Assembly: GCA_964608605.1 (NCBI GenBank)
Contig: CAZSOS010000002.1
Span: forward strand, 105,569-169,568
Length of the DNA stretch: 64,000 bases
DNA from: an uncultured Candidatus Saccharibacteria bacterium
GTDB taxonomy: Bacteria; Patescibacteriota; Minisyncoccia; Phycocordibacterales; UBA918
Direction: 5' to 3'
The translations under genes and the position numbers were made by a program. The notes beneath the pieces are model-generated. The model was not told the origin of the DNA. It did not search any database and saw only the letters and a program-made list of their open reading frames with translations. Shown one piece after another: positions 4,466-12,701 of the stretch (its first letter is position 1; each line of letters starts with the position of its first letter).

Positions 4466-5083
4466 TCAGCAGCTGAATTCCCCCTCCCCGCACGGATCGA
4501 TGGGCCCGCCGACCTGCGGTTCTCCCGGCTCCGGACCGACGGTGATGAAATCCTCCGCCCGATGACCGTCCTCGCCGTTCCACATCGTCCAGTAGTATTT
4601 CCACTCGTACCAGCCGATGTTGAGGTGCTTGGTCGATAGGCCGTGCCGCGCCAGCGTGTCGCCCACCTTGCGGCTGGCCATGCAGGCGGCGCTGTAGCAG
4701 TAAGTGATGATGTCCTTGCCGGGATTGTCCTTAGCGATTTTCCGGAACTCCCGCACGATCCGGTCCTCCGCACTCTCTCCCGAGGCGTCGCTCGGCGCGT
4801 AATTCGGCACGTTGATGGCACTGGTGATGTGTTCCGCCTCGTATTCGGCGCTACTCCGGAGATCGACCAGCACGAACTGGTCGTGCGTGCCGCGCTGCAA
4901 AGCCGTCTTGATGTCGTAGGGACTGACCGAGGTCAGGTTCTCCACGCGGTAATACTCGGCCATGAGGTCGGCTTCAGTAGGCCGCGCGGCGGCATACCAG
5001 CCGGCGGCGAAGATAGCGGCACCCAGCACGGCGCCGGCGACGAAGGCTCCCAGGATCGTTCGATCTTTCATCATGTCGGTCAA
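4466..5083 (-). CDS. Rhodanese-domain protein, membrane anchored
   Basis: N-terminal TM segment, then a rhodanese fold (VLVDLRSSAEYEAEHI...ITYCYSAACMASRKV with the catalytic Cys loop CxxxxxR). Confidence 0.75.
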   Translation of the reverse strand: MTDMMKDRTILGAFVAGAVLGAAIFAAGWYAAARPTEADLMAEYYRVENLTSVSPYDIKTALQRGTHDQFVLVDLRSSAEYEAEHITSAINVPNYAPSDASGESAEDRIVREFRKIAKDNPGKDIITYCYSAACMASRKVGDTLARHGLSTKHLNIGWYEWKYYWTMWNGEDGHRAEDFITVGPEPGEPQVGGPIDPCGEGEFSC

Positions 5084-5097
5084 GGTTATCCGTTAAT

Positions 5098-5484
5098 TCA
5101 CGCTATCTTAGCACCACCCCGGCCCGGAGCCAGGTCATAGACCGCTTCCGGCTTCACGACCAGCACGCCTTTCAAGACGCGGTCGGGATGTTTGCCGCTA
5201 AGCCACTTAGCCGCCCGGTCGAACTCCTCCCCTTCCCGGCGGTAGTCCGCCCAACCTTTCACCTGCGCGCCGACGAAGCCTTTCCAGAAGGCCACCGAGA
5301 CGCGGTCGTCGCTTCCGAGGTTCGCGACCGAGCGGACCATGAAGCAGTCGCAGATGACGATCAGTCCGTTCTCGAGAAGCACCATCGACAACGGCACCAG
5401 GTTCGGTCCATCGGCGCCGTTGGTGGCCAGCGCGCGCTGATCGGCTTCGATCAATATGTTCATGACTTCGGTGGGCATTTCCAT
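5098..5484 (-). CDS. Pyridoxamine 5'-phosphate oxidase-like FMN-binding split-barrel protein
   Basis: ADQRALATNGADGPNLVPLSMVLLENGLIVI...VSVAFW is PNPOx-family-like. I placed the start at MEMPTEV (5484) so that the CDS does not run through the operator palindrome. Confidence 0.65.
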   Translation of the reverse strand: MEMPTEVMNILIEADQRALATNGADGPNLVPLSMVLLENGLIVICDCFMVRSVANLGSDDRVSVAFWKGFVGAQVKGWADYRREGEEFDRAAKWLSGKHPDRVLKGVLVVKPEAVYDLAPGRGGAKIA

Positions 5485-5493
5485 AGGTATGAT

Positions 5494-5519
5494 ATTATAT
5501 AGATAATTATCTATATAAT
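5494..5519. promoter_or_regulatory. Perfect 26-bp palindrome ATTATATAGATAATTATCTATATAAT in the divergent promoter region
   Basis: Its reverse complement is identical. It is flanked by direct CCATAG repeats and sits between the divergently transcribed PNPOx-like gene and the arsR-family gene. I take it as a candidate ArsR/SmtB operator. Confidence 0.5.
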
Positions 5520-5538
5520 AATCCATAGATGATCGTCT

Positions 5539-5862
5539 ATGCAATCAAAAGCTGGTGAAAAGACCTACAAGCGGCCCGACTGGGTCAAAAGCGGCGAGGA
5601 GGAGCTGTGTCCCGAGTGCTTCAAGGCCGTCGGCGACAAGAACCGTTACAAGCTGATCTGCCTGCTCGGCCGCTCCCCCGACGGACTGAACGTCACGGAG
5701 ATGACCCGGGAGCTCGAACTGGCGCAGCCGACCGTCACTCATCACCTCAACATCCTCCGGGAAGTGAACGCCGTCGACCGCGAAGAACAGGGCCGCGAAC
5801 GGATCTACAAGCTCAACCGCTCCGCCCATTGTTTCGAGGATTGTCAGATACCTTATAACTAA
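5539..5862 (+). CDS. ArsR/SmtB-family metalloregulator (winged HTH)
   Basis: The HTH is LAQPTVTHHLNILREVNAV. There is a CPEC pair near the N-terminus and a ...CFEDC pair near the C-terminus. It sits directly upstream of nirK. Confidence 0.85.
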   Translation: MQSKAGEKTYKRPDWVKSGEEELCPECFKAVGDKNRYKLICLLGRSPDGLNVTEMTRELELAQPTVTHHLNILREVNAVDREEQGRERIYKLNRSAHCFEDCQIPYN

Positions 5863-5867
5863 CCAGC

Positions 5868-7094
5868 ATGCAAACCACTTTGTCGCTCTTTTATTATCTG
5901 CTCTCCCAGGGTCTTGGCTTTGTGATCCTGACCGTCGCCCTGATCCTTTTCGTCATCTGGAGCATCAACGATCTCTACTCCAGGAAGACCATCGTGCTCT
6001 TATCGCTCATTTTGCTCGGCTGGATATTCTTCGGCCTCTTGCCGCTTGGCAATCTGGACTTCCGCTCCTACCCCTTCTCTCTCACCACCTACGGCCCCGG
6101 CGACGGTCCCATCCTGCCTTTCGGCAACATGCTCCGCTTCTTCCGCCAGGCTAACGACCTGGAGCGGGTCGCCGACATCGCCCGCGATCCGAACGAGGTG
6201 CCGCCGCCGATCGACCGCCGGGAACCGGCGGTCGTCGAGCTCAAGCTGACCGCCAAGGAAGTGGTGGCCGAGATGGCGCCCGGCGTCTACTTCAACTATT
6301 GGACCTTCGGCGGACAGGTTCCCGGCCCGATGCTGCGCGCCCGGGTCGGAGACACGGTGCGACTCACCCTGACGAACGACCCGTCGAGCCTGCATCATCA
6401 CAACATCGATCTGCACGCCGTCACCGGTCCGGGCGGCGGCGCCTCCGTCACCAACGTCGCGCCCGGCGAATCGAAGACCCTGACCTTCAAGGCGCTGAAT
6501 CCCGGCCTCTACGTCTACCACTGTGCTTACCCCAATATGGCCAATCACATGGCCCACGGCATGTACGGACTCATCCTCATCGAGCCGGAGGAGGGCCTGC
6601 CGGAAGTCGACCGGGAATTCTACGTCATGCAGGGCGAGTTCTACAGCACCGGCGGCCTAGGGAAACGCGGCCTGCAGGTCTTCGACGCCAAGGCCATGCT
6701 CGACAGCCGGCCGACCTACGTGGTCTTCAACGGCAAGGTGGGCGGCACGGTCGGCAACATGGAGGCGAAGGTCGGCGAGACCGCGCGCGTGTACGTCGGC
6801 AACGGCGGCGTGAACCTAATCTCCTCCTTCCATCTGGTCGGCGAGATATTCGACCGCGTCCACGCCGAAGGCTCGATCGGAAATTCCCCGCTTCAAAACG
6901 TCCAGACCACGCTGGTCCCGGCCGGCGGGGCCGCCATGGTGGAATTCGGACTCGAGGTACCGGGCACGTACGTAATGGTCGATCACGCGCTCTCCCGTGC
7001 CGACCGCGGCGCCTGGGGCACGTTGAACGTCTCGGGGACAGCCAGCAGCACCGTCTACGACGGCGTCCCGGGCGGCGGAGCGCACGGACATTAA
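5868..7094 (+). CDS. nirK: Copper-containing nitrite reductase (NirK) with an N-terminal membrane-anchor extension
   Basis: HNIDLHA is the type-2/type-1 Cu His motif. YVYHCAYPNMANHMAHGMYG gives the Cys-His-Met type-1 Cu ligand spacing. The two-cupredoxin length is right. The first ~70 aa form two predicted TM helices. Confidence 0.85.
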   Translation: MQTTLSLFYYLLSQGLGFVILTVALILFVIWSINDLYSRKTIVLLSLILLGWIFFGLLPLGNLDFRSYPFSLTTYGPGDGPILPFGNMLRFFRQANDLERVADIARDPNEVPPPIDRREPAVVELKLTAKEVVAEMAPGVYFNYWTFGGQVPGPMLRARVGDTVRLTLTNDPSSLHHHNIDLHAVTGPGGGASVTNVAPGESKTLTFKALNPGLYVYHCAYPNMANHMAHGMYGLILIEPEEGLPEVDREFYVMQGEFYSTGGLGKRGLQVFDAKAMLDSRPTYVVFNGKVGGTVGNMEAKVGETARVYVGNGGVNLISSFHLVGEIFDRVHAEGSIGNSPLQNVQTTLVPAGGAAMVEFGLEVPGTYVMVDHALSRADRGAWGTLNVSGTASSTVYDGVPGGGAHGH

Positions 7095-7110
7095 AAGATC
7101 ATTCCTCCTC

Positions 7111-8085
7111 ATGAAAATATTCGTCACCAGGAACATACCGCCGATCGGTCCGGAAAAGCTCCGCGCCGCGGGCCATGAAGTGGTCATCGCCGAGCGGGAT
7201 GACGGCCTGACCCCAGCGGAGCTGATCGAGCGATTGCGCCGCGAGGATCCCGACGCCGTGCTCTGCCTCCTCACCGACCGGATAGACACGGAAGTGCTTG
7301 CGGCCGCGCCGCAGGCCAAGATATTCGCCAATTACGCCGTCGGCTACGACAACATCGACCTCGAAGCGGCGCGGGAGCGCGGCGTCATTATCACCAACAC
7401 GCCGGACATCCTGACCGAAGCCGTGGCCGAACATACCGTCGCGCTCATACTGTCGCTGGCGCGCCGCGTCGTCGAGGCCGACCGTTTCACCCGCGAGGGC
7501 CGCTACCAGGGCTGGGATCCCCTGCTGCTACTTGGCCTGGAGCTGAAAGGCAAGACCTTGGGCCTAGTCGGCGGCGGACGCATTGGCGGCCGCGTGGCCG
7601 AGATCCTGCACCGAGGCTTCGGCATGAACGTCTCTTACCACGACCAGCGGCAGAATACCGCCCTGGAGACCGGACTGGCCGCCACCTTCAGGCCGGAACT
7701 CGACGCGCTATTGGCCGAGGCCGACGTGATATCCATCCATCTGCCGCTGACGGATTCCACTCGCCATCTTTTCGATACTGAAACTTTCGCCCGGATGAAA
7801 CCCAGCGCGCTCCTTATCAACACCGCCCGCGGCGCCATCGTCGACGAAGCGGCCCTGGCCGCGGCGCTGAGGGAAAAGGTCATCGCCGGAGCCGCCATCG
7901 ACGTATTCGAGAATGAACCAGCGGTCCATCCGGAGCTGCTACCACTTTCGAACGTCATCCTGACGCCGCACATCGCCTCGGCCACCCGGGAAGCGCGCGA
8001 CGCCATGAGCCTGATGGCCGCCGACAATATCAGCGCGGTCTTGGCCGGCCGGCCGCCGCTCCATCCCGTCGGTGTGGTACAGTAG
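7111..8085 (+). CDS. D-isomer-specific 2-hydroxyacid dehydrogenase (glyoxylate/hydroxypyruvate reductase-like)
   Basis: NAD-binding GLVGGGRIGGRVAEIL, plus a catalytic R...E...H region (ARGAIVDE...TPHIASAT). Confidence 0.9.
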   Translation: MKIFVTRNIPPIGPEKLRAAGHEVVIAERDDGLTPAELIERLRREDPDAVLCLLTDRIDTEVLAAAPQAKIFANYAVGYDNIDLEAARERGVIITNTPDILTEAVAEHTVALILSLARRVVEADRFTREGRYQGWDPLLLLGLELKGKTLGLVGGGRIGGRVAEILHRGFGMNVSYHDQRQNTALETGLAATFRPELDALLAEADVISIHLPLTDSTRHLFDTETFARMKPSALLINTARGAIVDEAALAAALREKVIAGAAIDVFENEPAVHPELLPLSNVILTPHIASATREARDAMSLMAADNISAVLAGRPPLHPVGVVQ

Positions 8086-8089
8086 CCGG

Positions 8090-8590
8090 ATGCGGGAAAT
8101 ATCTCCGATAGAAAAACAAGCCACCGCGCTCACCAGGTGGGTAGGCTCTCCGGCTTCGATCGTCACCCACACGATCGTGTTCGCGCTGTCTTTTGCCCTA
8201 GCTTTTTTCGGCCTCATCACCTTCGACCGGATGCTCTTGGTGCTCACCACTATAGTCTCCCTGGAGGCTATCTACCTGGCCATCTTCATCCAGATGACAG
8301 TGAACCGCCAGAGCGAAGCCATCGCCGAGGTGGAACAGGACCTCGATGAGATCCAGGAAGACATGGGCGAGATCCAAGAGGACCTCGATGAGATCGGCGA
8401 GGACGTGGAAGAGCTTCAGGAAGACGTGGAGGAGCTGGGAGAAGACGTCGAGGAGATCAGCGAGGATGTCGAGGACCTGGGTGAGGACAAGGCCGAGGAG
8501 AAGCGCAAACGCGAGCAGAAAGAAACGCTCCAGAACATCCATGACATGATGCAGAAGCTGGCGGCGGACATCGAGGAGTTGAGGAAATAG
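8090..8590 (+). CDS. Two-TM membrane protein with a C-terminal acidic nonapeptide repeat tail (DUF1003-like)
   Basis: Two hydrophobic helices, then about six repeats of E[DE][LV][DEG]E[IL][QGS]ED, encoded by imperfect 27-bp tandem repeats at 8330-8490. ATG at 8090 is preferred over the GTG at 8072. Confidence 0.6.
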   Translation: MREISPIEKQATALTRWVGSPASIVTHTIVFALSFALAFFGLITFDRMLLVLTTIVSLEAIYLAIFIQMTVNRQSEAIAEVEQDLDEIQEDMGEIQEDLDEIGEDVEELQEDVEELGEDVEEISEDVEDLGEDKAEEKRKREQKETLQNIHDMMQKLAADIEELRK

Positions 8591-9013: not shown

Positions 9014-9063
9014 GCCCCGCCGACAAAACGCCCCGCGTTTTGTCGGCGGGGCGTTTTGTTTTC
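9014..9063. terminator. Rho-independent terminator
   Basis: GCCCCGCCGACAAAACG...CGTTTTGTCGGCGGGGC stem followed by TTTTGTTTT. Confidence 0.65.
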
Positions 9064-9355
9064 CTTCCTTACTCAAGAAAGTAAGGTGCTTCGTTTACCA
9101 GTTGACCATCATCCACGTATCTTTCCATATGGAGAGATACGTGGATGGATTTAATGAGCCGGCTTGTTATGGTTATCTGAACGCAGGCGTGGCGAAGCGG
9201 GGCATTTTGTTATTAATTTCAAAGTTCCAAGTTGCGATAAGACGTTATTTTCGAACAAGGTGGCGAGACTGGACTGAGGCGCGCGTGGGAGCCGTATTTT
9301 ACATACGGTGACGAGCGCGCCGAAGGAAGTCCGTCAGATTGACGAAAATTACGTC

Positions 9356-11035
9356 TTATTTTGTCAGTTTCTGGCGAGTGAGGGCTTGAGCCGCGTTCAT
9401 CGAGTGCTGATAGTAGAGAGCCTTCACCCCCTTCTTCCAAGCGGTCAGATACATCTGGTTGATGTCCTTCGGCGGCACCTGGGGCGGCACCATGATGTTG
9501 AGCGACTGACCCTGGTCGATGTACTTCTGGCGCACCGCCGCCTGGTCGATGACGATGTTCTGGTCGAGCTCGGGGAAGGTGCGGAAGACTTCCCTGTCCT
9601 CATCACTGAGGAAATCGAGATGCTGCACCGATCCGTCATGATCGCGGATCGAGTTCCAGACCTCCTTGGTGTTCTTCCCCTTCTCCTCCAGTAGCTCTTC
9701 GAGAAAAGGATTCTTGATGGTCACCTTGAGCTTGGCCACGTCCTTCACGTAGGCGTTGGACCAGACCGGCTCGATCGACTGCGATACCTGGCCCAGGATG
9801 AAGGCCGAGGAAGTGGTCGGCGCGATGGCGAAGATGGTGGTGTTGCGGCGGCCATACCCCTGGAGGATCTCCGGTTCGCCGAATTCTTCGGCCAGTTTCT
9901 TCGAGGCCGCGTCGCCCCTCTCCTTCAGGTTCTTCCAAATATCTTCGTTCAGCTTCGCCGCCTCGGCGCTTTCAAACGGGATCCGCTGGCTCTGCAGGTA
10001 CGAATGCCAACCGAGGACGCCGAGACCGAGAGCGCGGTGGTTCTTGGCGAAGTTGTACGCCCGCTCCATGAAGAGGAAGGCCTGCTTGTCCGAGCGCTTA
10101 TCGGAATCCCGAAGCGCCTCCAGGCGATCGCAGAAGTCGGTGATGACGGCGTCCAGGAGGGCCACCATCGTCTCCACGAAGTCGGTATCCTTCCACTCGT
10201 CGTAGTGGAGGAGGTTCATGGAGGACAAGCAGCAGACGAAGGAGTTGTTCTCGTCCGATGGCAGCATGATCTCGGAGCAGAGGTTCGAGGCCACGATCTT
10301 CAAGTCCTTGTCCTTGTAGACGTCCGGCTTGTGATTATTGGCGTTATCCGTGAACAGGATGTACGGATAGCCGATCTCGCCGCGGCGCTGGATGATCTTG
10401 GCCCAGACCTTGCGCTTGTCCTCGTCGCCGTCGATCATGGACTGCATCCACTCGTCCCCCACCGTCACCGCGTGGGTCATGTTCTGGATCGGATTGCCCT
10501 CGGTGCCGATCTCCAGGAACTCCAGGATGTCCGGATGTTCGACCGGCAAGTAGGGCGAGAAGGACCCGCGGCGCACCTTGCCCTGCGAGACGACGTGGAT
10601 CAGAGTCTCGAACATCTGCATGAAATGGACCGGGCCGTTCGAGGTGCCATTGTTGGTGATGTTGGCGCCTCGCGGCCGGAGCGCGCCGAAGTAGCCGGAG
10701 GTGCCGCCGCCGTATTTCGACATCATGCCGTTCTCGGCGTGGGTGTACATGATGCTCGACATGTCGTCGGCGATATAGGCGCCGAAGCAGCTGATCGGTA
10801 GCCCGCGGCCAAGGCCGAAGTTGGCCCAGACCGGCGTGGAGAACGAGATCCAGCCCTTTGAGGCGTAGTCGACAAGCTTGTCGGCGTAGCCGGGACGCTT
10901 AAGGATCTTCTCGGCGTAATCGGCGATCTGCCTGACCCGCTCTTCGGGGGTCTGCCCCTCTAGCGTGTAGCCTCGCGACATGAACTGCCGGGAGTTGTCG
11001 TTAAGCCAGTACCAGGATTTGCTGCGATCGGTCAT
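9356..11035 (-). CDS. nrdA: Class I ribonucleoside-diphosphate reductase alpha subunit, without an ATP-cone
   Basis: Active-site SNLCSEI, the C-terminal YY pair (ALYYQHS) and the thiyl-radical loop are present. At 559 aa it starts directly at the catalytic-core helix (WYWLNDNSRQFMSRGY) with no N-terminal ATP-cone. Confidence 0.9.
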   Translation of the reverse strand: MTDRSKSWYWLNDNSRQFMSRGYTLEGQTPEERVRQIADYAEKILKRPGYADKLVDYASKGWISFSTPVWANFGLGRGLPISCFGAYIADDMSSIMYTHAENGMMSKYGGGTSGYFGALRPRGANITNNGTSNGPVHFMQMFETLIHVVSQGKVRRGSFSPYLPVEHPDILEFLEIGTEGNPIQNMTHAVTVGDEWMQSMIDGDEDKRKVWAKIIQRRGEIGYPYILFTDNANNHKPDVYKDKDLKIVASNLCSEIMLPSDENNSFVCCLSSMNLLHYDEWKDTDFVETMVALLDAVITDFCDRLEALRDSDKRSDKQAFLFMERAYNFAKNHRALGLGVLGWHSYLQSQRIPFESAEAAKLNEDIWKNLKERGDAASKKLAEEFGEPEILQGYGRRNTTIFAIAPTTSSAFILGQVSQSIEPVWSNAYVKDVAKLKVTIKNPFLEELLEEKGKNTKEVWNSIRDHDGSVQHLDFLSDEDREVFRTFPELDQNIVIDQAAVRQKYIDQGQSLNIMVPPQVPPKDINQMYLTAWKKGVKALYYQHSMNAAQALTRQKLTK

Positions 11036-11160: not shown

Positions 11161-12474
11161 CTAGAAGAGGTCGTCGCTGGTAACGGAGGTCTGACGCTTA
11201 TTGTAGTTTATGCTGCGCTTATCGAAGAAGTCGACGTGCTTGGTGGCGATGACCTCGTCGTTGAACCACTCGGTCTTGTCGAGCATGGCCTCGTCGACCG
11301 AGAAGACGGCCGACATGCCGATGGAGATAAGCGAGTTATTGAGCCGGTGCTTGATGAATTCCTTGATCTCAGCCTTGGGCAGGAAGTCGAGCTCGCCGGT
11401 CTCGAAGATCCAGTCGACGATGGCGCTCTCGGCCTGATAAGCCTCGACGCACATCATGCGCACCGTTTCGCGATGCTCGACGTCGAACCATTCCGGGTGC
11501 TCGGCGCGGATGATGTTGATGATGTCGATGCCGAACATGCCGTGTATCTGCTCCTCCTTCGAGGTAGCTTCCACCGCGTTCGAGATGCCCTTGAAGAGGT
11601 TCTTGTGCTTATTGAAGGACATCATGATCAGGAACTGCGAGAACAGCGATACGTGCTCGATGAAGAGCGAGAAGAGGAGGACCGCCTGCGAGTACTCGCG
11701 CATCTCGCCGGTCTTGGCGAAGGCGTTGACCTTATCGAGGTACTCGACGCGCTTCTTGATGACCGGTACTTCGGTCAGTTTCTTGAACTCGTCGTTGAGG
11801 CCGAGGATCTCCAAGAGATGGGCGTAGGCGTCCATGTGGCGCACCTCGCTCTCGGCGAAGGTGAAGCCGACGGCGCCGACCTCCGGTTTCGGAATGCGCC
11901 CGTAGATATTGCCCCAGAAGCTCTTCACCGCAACCTCGATCTGCGCGATCGCCAGCATGGTCTTCTTGATGGCCTCGCGCTCATGATCGCCCACGCGGGT
12001 CTTGAAGTCGTCGATGTCGCGAGTGTAGTTGAACTCGGTGTGCACCCAGTACGAATGGCGGATGGCGGTAACGTACTCGTAGAGTTCGGGATACTCGTAA
12101 GGCTTCAGGTTGGCGCGCTTGCGGAAAAGGTCGCGTCTCCGGAGACGCTTGCGCTCCGCGCGGTAGATGATGTAAGCCTTGGCGGTCTCGAAGAAAGCGA
12201 GCTCCATGAGGCCGGCCTCCACCAGGTCTTGGATCTCCTCAACCGTCGGGTACCCATCGACGCATTTGCCGAAGTGATGGTCTCCCGGCTCGGCAGTGGC
12301 GGCCCCCACGCACATGGCGACGATCTTTTCATGCACTAGCTTAGCCACGCGCGCGGCCTCGGCCGCGCTTCCCTCCCCCGTCTCGCCAAAGGCCTTCAAG
12401 ACGGCGGCTTCTATCTTCTCGATCTTGAAGTCGACGACGGAACCGTCGCGTTTACGAATCTGAACGATCTCCAT
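11161..12474 (-). CDS. nrdB: Ribonucleotide reductase beta (R2) subunit carrying an N-terminal ATP-cone domain
   Basis: The N-terminus MEIVQIRKRDGSVVDFKIEKIEAAVLKAF... is an ATP-cone signature. It is followed by a ferritin-like di-iron R2 core (ESEVRHMDAY, FIEHVSLFSQF). Start chosen at the ATG at 12474. Confidence 0.85.
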   Translation of the reverse strand: MEIVQIRKRDGSVVDFKIEKIEAAVLKAFGETGEGSAAEAARVAKLVHEKIVAMCVGAATAEPGDHHFGKCVDGYPTVEEIQDLVEAGLMELAFFETAKAYIIYRAERKRLRRRDLFRKRANLKPYEYPELYEYVTAIRHSYWVHTEFNYTRDIDDFKTRVGDHEREAIKKTMLAIAQIEVAVKSFWGNIYGRIPKPEVGAVGFTFAESEVRHMDAYAHLLEILGLNDEFKKLTEVPVIKKRVEYLDKVNAFAKTGEMREYSQAVLLFSLFIEHVSLFSQFLIMMSFNKHKNLFKGISNAVEATSKEEQIHGMFGIDIINIIRAEHPEWFDVEHRETVRMMCVEAYQAESAIVDWIFETGELDFLPKAEIKEFIKHRLNNSLISIGMSAVFSVDEAMLDKTEWFNDEVIATKHVDFFDKRSINYNKRQTSVTSDDLF

Positions 12475-12701
12475 ATGCATGTAATTACTACGCCTGATAA
12501 ACAAAACCGCTTTCGCGGACACTGGTCTGCTCATATATACTCGCGCGCAAAGCCAATCGGGCAATACGGAATTGGATCTACGAACGAACTAGTGAACCTC
12601 CACGCGAAGATCGATGTCTTCGCGTACGCTAATGATAGCATCATCGGTCTTTTGCCCTTTTCGACACGAAAATGACCGGTAGACAAAAAAGCGGAAAATA
12701 A

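Follow-up and report, generated by a model that had tools for sequence, protein, structure and literature searches.

A cysteine-rich ArsR-like protein and a conserved dual operator in front of nirK in a Paceibacteria-type genome

Bacteria of the candidate phyla radiation (CPR) have no respiratory chain, and why they should retain a nitrite reductase is an open question (PMC5581439, PMC12931201); neither of these two papers on CPR NirK mentions a regulator. Here we ask what might switch the gene on at a locus where nirK directly follows a gene for a small ArsR-like protein and both are preceded by a perfect palindrome. The locus lies in a 64,000-nucleotide stretch of contig CAZSOS010000002.1 (assembly GCA_964608605.1, positions 105,569 to 169,568; hereafter the window), which has a GC content of 57% and whose proteins find their best matches in Paceibacteria/Kaiserbacteria-type CPR genomes. 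An earlier reading, made from the sequence alone, had seen in it a membrane-anchored NirK under a divergent ArsR-family regulator, with metal- or redox-responsive control through a palindromic operator candidate. The explanation that we favour, at a probability of roughly 70%, is that this part of a Paceibacteria-type (CPR) genome holds a bidirectional promoter region under auto-repression, governed by the ArsR-like protein through two palindromic sites.

Two operator sites in front of the regulator gene

We checked the palindrome by direct reading of the sequence and by script. The perfect 26-bp palindrome reported by the sequence-only reading is real: ATTATATAGATAATTATCTATATAAT occurs once in the window, at 5494-5519, and in none of 100 shuffles even when three mismatches were allowed. 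It extends to a perfect 28-bp palindrome, TATTATATAGATAATTATCTATATAATA (5493-5520), which consists of operator site 1 (ATAGAT-AATT-ATCTAT, ATAGATAATTATCTAT; 5499-5514), a perfect match to the motif ATWGAY-N4-RTCTAT, and two outward-facing TATAAT hexamers. Site 2 (ATAGAT-GATC-GTCTAT, ATAGATGATCGTCTAT; 5525-5540) conforms to the same motif and ends on the A and T with which the arsR start codon begins.

One hexamer lies in the inter-site linker (5514-5519, plus strand) and is a candidate -10 box of the arsR-nirK promoter; the other, read at 5494-5499 on the minus strand, is a candidate -10 box of the divergently transcribed gene, which encodes a PNPOx-like protein. The paired hexamers are plausibly the -10 boxes of two divergent promoters. 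As the minus-strand box lies only 10 nt before the PNPOx-like ATG, a nearly leaderless transcript is implied. It is because TATAAT flanks site 1 on both strands that the palindrome is so unusually long and perfect in the window's clade. The layout of the 28-bp palindrome recurs in related loci L001, L025, L026 and L030, and in the orthologous loci L001 and L002 the palindrome differs from that of the window in the central four bases only. The CCATAG direct repeats that had been described as flanking it proved to be an artefact: the right copy (5523-5528) is the left edge of the conserved site 2, while the left copy (5481-5486) holds the PNPOx-like start codon and is not conserved in orthologous loci.

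The anatomy of the operator was derived from an alignment of 59 non-redundant related loci. Two sites precede arsR in these loci, separated by a linker of 10-11 bp and with a start-to-start spacing of 26-27 bp in 48 of the 59; site 2 overlaps the in-frame ATG of arsR in 50. Position 4 is G in 53 copies of site 1 and in all 59 of site 2, position 13 is C in all 59 at both sites, and the central four bases are variable. Site 1 is preceded by a conserved gTGATAT resembling a -35 box and followed by an AT-rich, -10-like hexamer in the inter-site linker. Its left half reads ATTGAT in most loci and that of site 2 ATAGAT, an asymmetry that is itself conserved. In six loci (L032, L034, L041, L042, L080 and L087) site 1 is ATTGAT-N4-ATCAAT, which contains a perfect FNR/CRP-type TTGAT-N4-ATCAA box.

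The sequence-only reading had tied its operator candidate to presence at orthologous loci, and there the palindrome is found as a conserved operator: with two or fewer mismatches, the motif is present in 78 of 81 arsR upstream regions. It occurs beside arsR with either a ribonucleotide reductase (RNR) or the PNPOx-like protein encoded by the divergent gene. Elsewhere it is rare. In the window the perfect motif is confined to sites 1 and 2, and five matches with at most one mismatch compare with 0.82 expected by chance; across 587 kb of related loci there are just four perfect copies away from any arsR start, two of which form a duplicated pair before another gene, divergent from nrdJ.

A profile search recovered distant relatives of the regulator that have a CxxC...CxxxC arrangement and the recognition helix QPT(V/I)(T/S)HHL. 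Five of them (P0248, P0258, P0395, P0246 and P0282) carry ATAGAT-N4-ATCTAT or ATAGAC-N4-GTCTAT no more than 30 nt from where their own coding sequence starts, and a sixth, P0256, has the operator with one mismatch. In L111 such a site sits inside a perfect 38-bp palindrome. That the same palindrome stands beside distant relatives in unrelated contexts argues that it is the regulator's own binding site. We therefore consider it very likely, from comparative sequence evidence, that the ArsR-like protein pairs with this operator and represses from it.

Single copies also occur away from arsR. In L042 (526-541) and L044 (951-966) one perfect operator-like palindrome, GATTATATAGATnnnnATCTATATATCG, lies upstream of a gene for a secreted protein, itself 3' of nrdJ; this protein may be DUF4430/cobalamin-binding-like.

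A four-cysteine regulator and an ordinary CPR nitrite reductase

The arsR-like gene (5539-5862, plus strand) encodes 107 residues that match PF01022 (37.5 bits, cutoff 22) and NF033788, 'metalloregulator ArsR/SmtB' (65.8 bits, cutoff 55). Among solved structures, the Zn/Cd sensors CzrA, SmtB and CadC come closest. Similarity to CzrA (phmmer E=2e-8) ends at residue 93, and in an AlphaFold2 model with a mean predicted local distance difference test score (pLDDT) of 88, a 68-residue core alone superposes on the three sensors (Foldseek, root-mean-square deviation 0.8 Å); HlyU, BigR, SqrR and RexT are among the further structural matches. The C-terminus, ...LNRSAHCFEDCQIPYN, ends 14 residues beyond the β-wing, so that there is neither an α5 helix nor an α5 metal site of the Asp/His-x-His ... 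His-x2-Glu/His pattern, and the C-terminal region of the model holds a single helix of 4 residues (97-100). An α3/α3N thiolate site, which in ArsR and CadC is a CxC in α3, is likewise absent, the α3 region NVTEMTRELE having no Cys.

What the protein has instead of these classical elements is a different set of cysteines. Cys residues occupy positions 24, 27, 41, 98 and 102, and across 80 family sequences C24 and C27, at the start of α1, and H97, C98 and C102, followed by I104 and P105, at the C-terminus are invariant. So are R12, P13, W15 and E20 within a basic N-terminal tail (RPxWVxSGE) and the recognition helix QPTVTHHL. The claim of an ArsR-family protein with Cys pairs directly upstream of nirK was thus correct. 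The subfamily is tight, with just 7 clusters at 50% identity for E<=1e-30, beyond which scores fall to the level of generic ArsR proteins. It has no name among curated families, and no Pfam or NCBIfam match was found in the protein to an ArnR C-terminal domain or to an Rrf2 domain, with its Cx5-6Cx5-6C cluster motif.

Compared with CzrA, SmtB and CadC, the regulator shares the winged-helix core (α1-α2-α3-αR-β1-β2), the small size and an inverted-repeat operator over its own promoter, and probably autorepression too. It differs in its ligand set, which is new (CxxC at the start of α1 and HCxxxC at the extreme C-terminus, with no α5 or α3N site), and in its operator, which is duplicated and of 6-4-6 form (ATAGAT-N4-ATCTAT) rather than the 12-2-12 form of ArsR/SmtB operators; nor are its neighbours metal-resistance genes. 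BigR, SqrR, HlyU, RexT, CyeR and MsvR use cysteines and not a metal site as the sensor on an ArsR fold, and control redox, sulfur or thioredoxin genes. These BigR-type regulators rely on an α2-α5 Cys pair or on vicinal Cys and keep α5, whereas the window protein has four Cys and a His and another operator; its NCBIfam BigR score is 27 bits against a cutoff of 155.

The downstream gene (5868-7094, plus strand) encodes 408 residues, of which 100-398 match TIGR02376 with 341.2 bits (cutoff 296.3). Alignment to AniA of Neisseria gonorrhoeae (1kbv; E=1e-102) spans about 295 residues with about 57% identity across the core, and RpNiR and other solved NirKs also align. All seven Cu ligands are in place: H178, C219, H227 and M232 of the type-1 site, and H183, H218 and H373 of the type-2 site, whose histidines had been named as the decisive check on the assignment. 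The catalytic D181 and H322 are present as well. As a class, NirK enzymes are homotrimers that turn nitrite into NO with electrons from a cupredoxin or cytochrome, and their type-2 site draws one of its three His from the neighbouring subunit. All nine positions are invariant in 121 sequences apart from one Met-to-Leu change, and since they are kept, the protein is not a generic multicopper oxidase. That the open reading frame is a genuine NirK, as had been proposed, is on these sequence criteria practically certain; judged in the same way, it is a complete class-II-like copper nitrite reductase and ordinary for its CPR clade.

With AniA and the core of RpNiR (Ralstonia pickettii, 3ziy), the protein has in common the two-cupredoxin core and the HNxDxH, HC, Hx4M, SFHxxGE and VDH motifs, in which the Cu ligands and both catalytic residues (Asp and His) reside. 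In place of the lipoprotein form of AniA and the C-terminal cytochrome c of RpNiR, the window NirK has an N-terminal extension of about 99 residues. This extension (residues 1-99) precedes the region alignable to solved NirKs and comprises two hydrophobic helices and a moderately conserved linker. The predicted membrane anchor (5907-6047, plus strand) has helices at about residues 14-33 and 40-60, with Kyte-Doolittle peaks above 1.6, around a positively charged loop, which agrees with the two N-terminal transmembrane helices of the sequence-only reading. Two such segments are present in 109 of 120 homologues, in which the mean net charge is +2.5 in the inter-helix loop but -0.2 at the N-terminus. 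The positive-inside rule then predicts an N-terminus facing out, a loop facing in and a catalytic domain outside the cell.

Such a two-helix extension is standard in the CPR NirK clade, which was published in 2017 as distinct and with conserved ligands (Danczak et al., PMC5581439). NirK had been called unexpected in a genome of this kind; in fact nirK has been reported in more than 140 Patescibacteria metagenome-assembled genomes (MAGs; PMC12931201), and CPR genomes that bear it are reported to have cupredoxin genes (PMC5581439, PMC12931201). The window protein is 80% identical to a homologue from a Candidatus Paceibacterota MAG and 76% to one from a Kaiserbacteria MAG, while no exact copy of it turned up in an index of contigs. 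Kaiserbacteria, Yonathbacteria, Wolfebacteria, Doudnabacteria and others have many full-length homologues of 405-410 residues, and non-CPR homologues align only from about residue 100 on. The composition comparison that had been suggested as a test of horizontal acquisition does not mark nirK as foreign: its GC content (0.636, z=1.3) and its GC content at third codon positions (0.851, z=1.2) lie within the spread of the window's genes. With synteny conserved in L001, L002, L029 and L030 in addition, horizontal transfer of nirK is unsupported.

Transcription units and the neighbourhood of arsR

The arsR and nirK genes lie on the plus strand with a gap of 5 nt, and a gene for a D-2-hydroxyacid dehydrogenase of glyoxylate/hydroxypyruvate type (7111-8085, plus strand; PF02826 E=2e-59; NF009714 346 bits, below cutoff) begins 16 nt past nirK. 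We found no terminator-like site within 5300-8300. On this arrangement arsR is the first gene of the nirK operon, of which the dehydrogenase is probably the last; the dehydrogenase gene is 3' of nirK in L001, L002, L029 and L030 too. The description of the regulator as divergent from nirK was thus mistaken. The gene that is divergent from arsR, across the palindrome, encodes a PNPOx-like split-barrel protein of 128 residues predicted to bind flavin mononucleotide (FMN; 5098-5484, minus strand, ATG at 5484; PF01243 39.8 bits, cutoff 28.1), with weak similarity among solved FMN-binding proteins to the Desulfovibrio FMN-binding protein and HupZ. A gene for a rhodanese-domain protein with an N-terminal hydrophobic segment (4466-5083, minus strand; PF00581 E=2e-14) follows on its 3' side, probably in the same divergent unit, and its synteny is kept in L001, L027 and L030.

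Neighbourhoods were compared for 73 distinct arsR loci from metagenomes, of which 62 could be evaluated downstream and 55 upstream. NirK is encoded directly downstream of arsR in 31 of the 62 and one gene further on in 3; other occupants of this position are alternative oxidase (AOX), a nitroreductase, DoxX and a 700-residue cytochrome b5/d1 membrane protein. The divergent upstream gene encodes an ATP-cone RNR, either class II NrdJ or an ATP-cone-NrdB fusion, in 41 of the 55 (a divergent neighbour of about 770 residues, considered as a CopA ATPase, proved to be an RNR of this class II, ATP-cone type). In 7 of the 55 the PNPOx-like gene stands upstream, divergent in 5 and co-directional in 2. 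In 80 loci, no metal transporter, metal chaperone or metallothionein gene, copA, copZ and czcD included, was seen beside the regulator. Neighbours of the distant relatives include cysteine desulfurase and NifU (iscSU), thioredoxin, ferredoxin-thioredoxin reductase, VKOR, MsrB and DoxX. As the neighbours thus belong to N-oxide, oxygen, thiol and iron-sulfur (Fe-S) chemistry and not to metal resistance, and the commonest partners are RNR and nirK and never metal transporters, a Cys centre labile to redox change or nitric oxide (NO) is preferred over a metal sensor.

Several individual loci add detail. Distant CxxC...CxxC ArsR-like proteins with an ATAGAT-N4-ATCTAT site, P0258 and P0282, occur in L106 (4001-6004), L107 and L112; the P0258 gene lies directly upstream of cysteine desulfurase and NifU_N (iscSU), an IscR-like position, and both adjoin thioredoxin and ferredoxin-thioredoxin reductase genes. 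In L025 (467-1760) nirK is missing and the 2-hydroxyacid dehydrogenase gene comes directly 3' of arsR, with synteny otherwise identical to close relatives; in L027/L028 (3501-5297) a nitroreductase gene takes the place of nirK, again with otherwise identical synteny. The position 3' of arsR behaves like an exchangeable cassette, and local gain and loss occur.

The protein of about 700 residues (L090, 3839-5947; L093, 1273-3357) has several transmembrane segments in its N-terminal part and, besides a cytochrome b5-like domain, a haem β-propeller of cytochrome d1 type (PF02239 E=2e-67), and may, by these domains, be a NirS/NirN-like haem protein in CPR genomes. Its gene lies between arsR and nirK in L090 and behind an operator pair of its own in L093. 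There, a duplicated pair (1059-1130), divergent from nrdJ, would drive the cytochrome b5/d1 gene, and behind it stands the remnant of an arsR start (MNKKRVGTTQK and a stop codon). An intact arsR that has its own sites is found 2.4 kb further downstream, so that here the promoter-operator module is seen being copied.

Some 4-7 kb from arsR the window has a class I-like RNR operon of its own (9356-11035 and 11161-12480, minus strand; nrdB-nrdA). Its small subunit (NrdB) carries a fused ATP-cone, which the 559-residue large subunit lacks. Unlike in most relatives, no ArsR-type operator lies upstream of it. A near-perfect 38-bp palindrome, CATCCACGTATCTTTCCATATGGAGAGATACGTGGATG (9110-9147), adjoined by a GC-rich, terminator-like hairpin at about 9017-9055, occupies the 350-bp gap past the 3' end of the large-subunit gene. 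At 8072-8590 (plus strand) lies a gene for a DUF1003/DUF948-like membrane protein whose coiled-coil tail, which includes IQEDLDEIGEDVEELQEDVEELGEDVEE, is repetitive and highly acidic.

What the regulator might sense

In the arrangement that we propose, the plus-strand unit would comprise the arsR-like regulator, nirK and the 2-hydroxyacid dehydrogenase, and the minus-strand unit the PNPOx-like flavoprotein and rhodanese. One regulator dimer would bind each palindrome, with the holo or reduced repressor occupying both. Site 1 would fill the -35/-10 spacer and lie between the -10 boxes of both divergent promoters, and site 2 would cover the transcription start and the arsR start codon, so that bound repressor would silence both units, its own gene included. 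The Cys24-x2-Cys27 ... His97-Cys98-x3-Cys102 centre would take the place of the missing α5 helix and of the classical ArsR metal sites, and a change at this centre would lower DNA affinity, derepressing arsR, nirK and the dehydrogenase gene on one side and the flavoprotein and rhodanese genes on the other (in most relatives, RNR on the second side).

The likeliest signal would be stress of an oxidative, nitrosative (NO) or thiol kind, felt at a Zn-thiolate or Fe-S centre. We put forward redox change or NO as the leading candidate, at odds somewhat short of even; that the centre is specifically an Fe-S cluster we consider unlikely. The regulator would then be a functional analogue of NsrR, IscR and ArnR built on an ArsR scaffold. 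NsrR, an Rrf2 protein, represses nirK/aniA. ArnR is a winged helix-turn-helix [4Fe-4S] NO-sensitive repressor of nar and hmp (PMC12343034). In both, a Cys-ligated, NO- or O2-labile centre on a winged-helix repressor acts at the promoter of an N-oxide gene, which is like the logic suggested here by analogy, and the regulator's family has paralogues at Fe-S assembly operons, much as IscR stands beside NsrR. Neither NsrR nor ArnR has any sequence or domain kinship with the regulator; cluster binding by the latter is hypothetical and the analogy functional only. Of the metal- or redox-responsive control suggested by the sequence-only reading, the metal part found no support (metal genes at 0 of 80 loci, α3N and α5 sites absent) and was set aside as the leading explanation, and the redox part is plausible and is the one we prefer.

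A classical ArsR/SmtB metallosensor, in which CxxC/HCxxxC binds Cu(I) or another thiophilic metal and releases the repressor so that NirK is made when copper is available or in excess, would fit the best family match, the Zn/Cd sensors as nearest structures and the invariance of four Cys and one His. A NirK trimer, moreover, requires six Cu. Against it stand the lack of both classical metal sites and of metal-handling neighbours such as copA, copZ, czcD or metallothionein, a dominant partner, RNR, that is not a copper enzyme, and distant relatives that adjoin Fe-S assembly and thiol-redox genes. We judge this reading improbable.

The same low standing applies to a purely structural zinc site, by which Cys4-His would replace α5 in folding or dimerisation and the protein would autoregulate constitutively, or answer to some small molecule, but would sense neither redox state nor metal. 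Secondary structure assigned to the model with DSSP places a CPxC knuckle at a helix N-terminus and the second Cys pair at the short C-terminal helix, an arrangement that we take to resemble structural zinc-knuckle or treble-clef sites, and the site is invariant, as structural sites are. The redox, N-oxide or Fe-S neighbours throughout the close and distant family nevertheless suggest a related signal. Zn-thiolate sites are also frequent redox switches, so that this alternative partly merges with the explanation we prefer.

Very improbable, finally, is that another factor, NrdR or a CRP/FNR-type protein, binds the palindromes and chiefly regulates the divergent RNR genes: tandem pairs of 16-bp partial palindromes in RNR promoter regions are indeed the NrdR-box layout, but NrdR boxes have conserved C4, A6, A8, T9, T11 and G13 and a linker of 15-16 bp (PMC13584703), where the present sites have G4/C13 and 10-11 bp, the sites accompany arsR, not RNR (being present in the window's clade with a PNPOx-like neighbour and at distant arsR-like genes with no RNR nearby, and absent at the window's nrdB-nrdA), and of the site-1 copies only the six noted above fit an FNR/CRP-type consensus, position 14 being T, a misfit to the FNR box, in 54 of 59 and site 2 being ATAGAT-N4-ATCTAT. 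On consensus, spacing and absence at nrdB-nrdA for NrdR, and on consensus for FNR/CRP, both were ruled out.

Several points weigh against the redox-responsive autorepressor that we favour. The pairing of regulator and operator is drawn from their co-occurrence; the promoter hexamers are weak relative to consensus, and a generic scan gave one poor promoter-like site. The regulon is mixed (RNR, NirK, AOX, flavoproteins, dehydrogenase) and indicates no single signal. Our explanation does not account for dimerisation in a protein without α5, and the sequence would fit a Cys centre with Zn, Fe-S or Cu(I) as well as a plain dithiol. No nirK accompanies arsR in about 40% of the evaluable loci, and at CPR nirK loci that have no adjacent arsR no operator was found upstream of nirK, which together indicate that this control of nirK is lineage-specific.

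As far as the searched literature shows, the Cys-rich ArsR-like regulator with its dual operator is undescribed: we found no description of either there, and no ArsR regulator of nirK or nrd genes in CPR. We tentatively suggest, with less assurance than for the signal itself, that CxxC...HCxxxC ArsR-like proteins are an unrecognised CPR family of Fe-S or Zn-thiolate redox/NO sensors that fill the roles of the Rrf2 proteins IscR and NsrR and share the ATAGAT-N4-ATCTAT operator. If so, Fe-S assembly, thiol repair, ribonucleotide reductase and nitrite reduction would each be turned on through different paralogues. The regulator itself, in which an ArsR scaffold has lost α5 and carries a new set of ligands, bears on how the ArsR family evolves new sensors.

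The conserved regulator-operator pair can be tested in vitro with no need to cultivate the organism, and its 16-bp motif can be used to map the regulon across Paceibacteria genomes. The pair ties nirK to ribonucleotide reductase and to redox-type genes; under the explanation we favour, nirK would serve a stress-induced or electron-sink function rather than being a constitutive denitrification gene. Should the sensor family be real, CPR nirK would be stress- or NO-responsive, with its expression coupled to DNA-precursor synthesis, and knowing the inducing signal would constrain why CPR bacteria keep a nitrite reductase.

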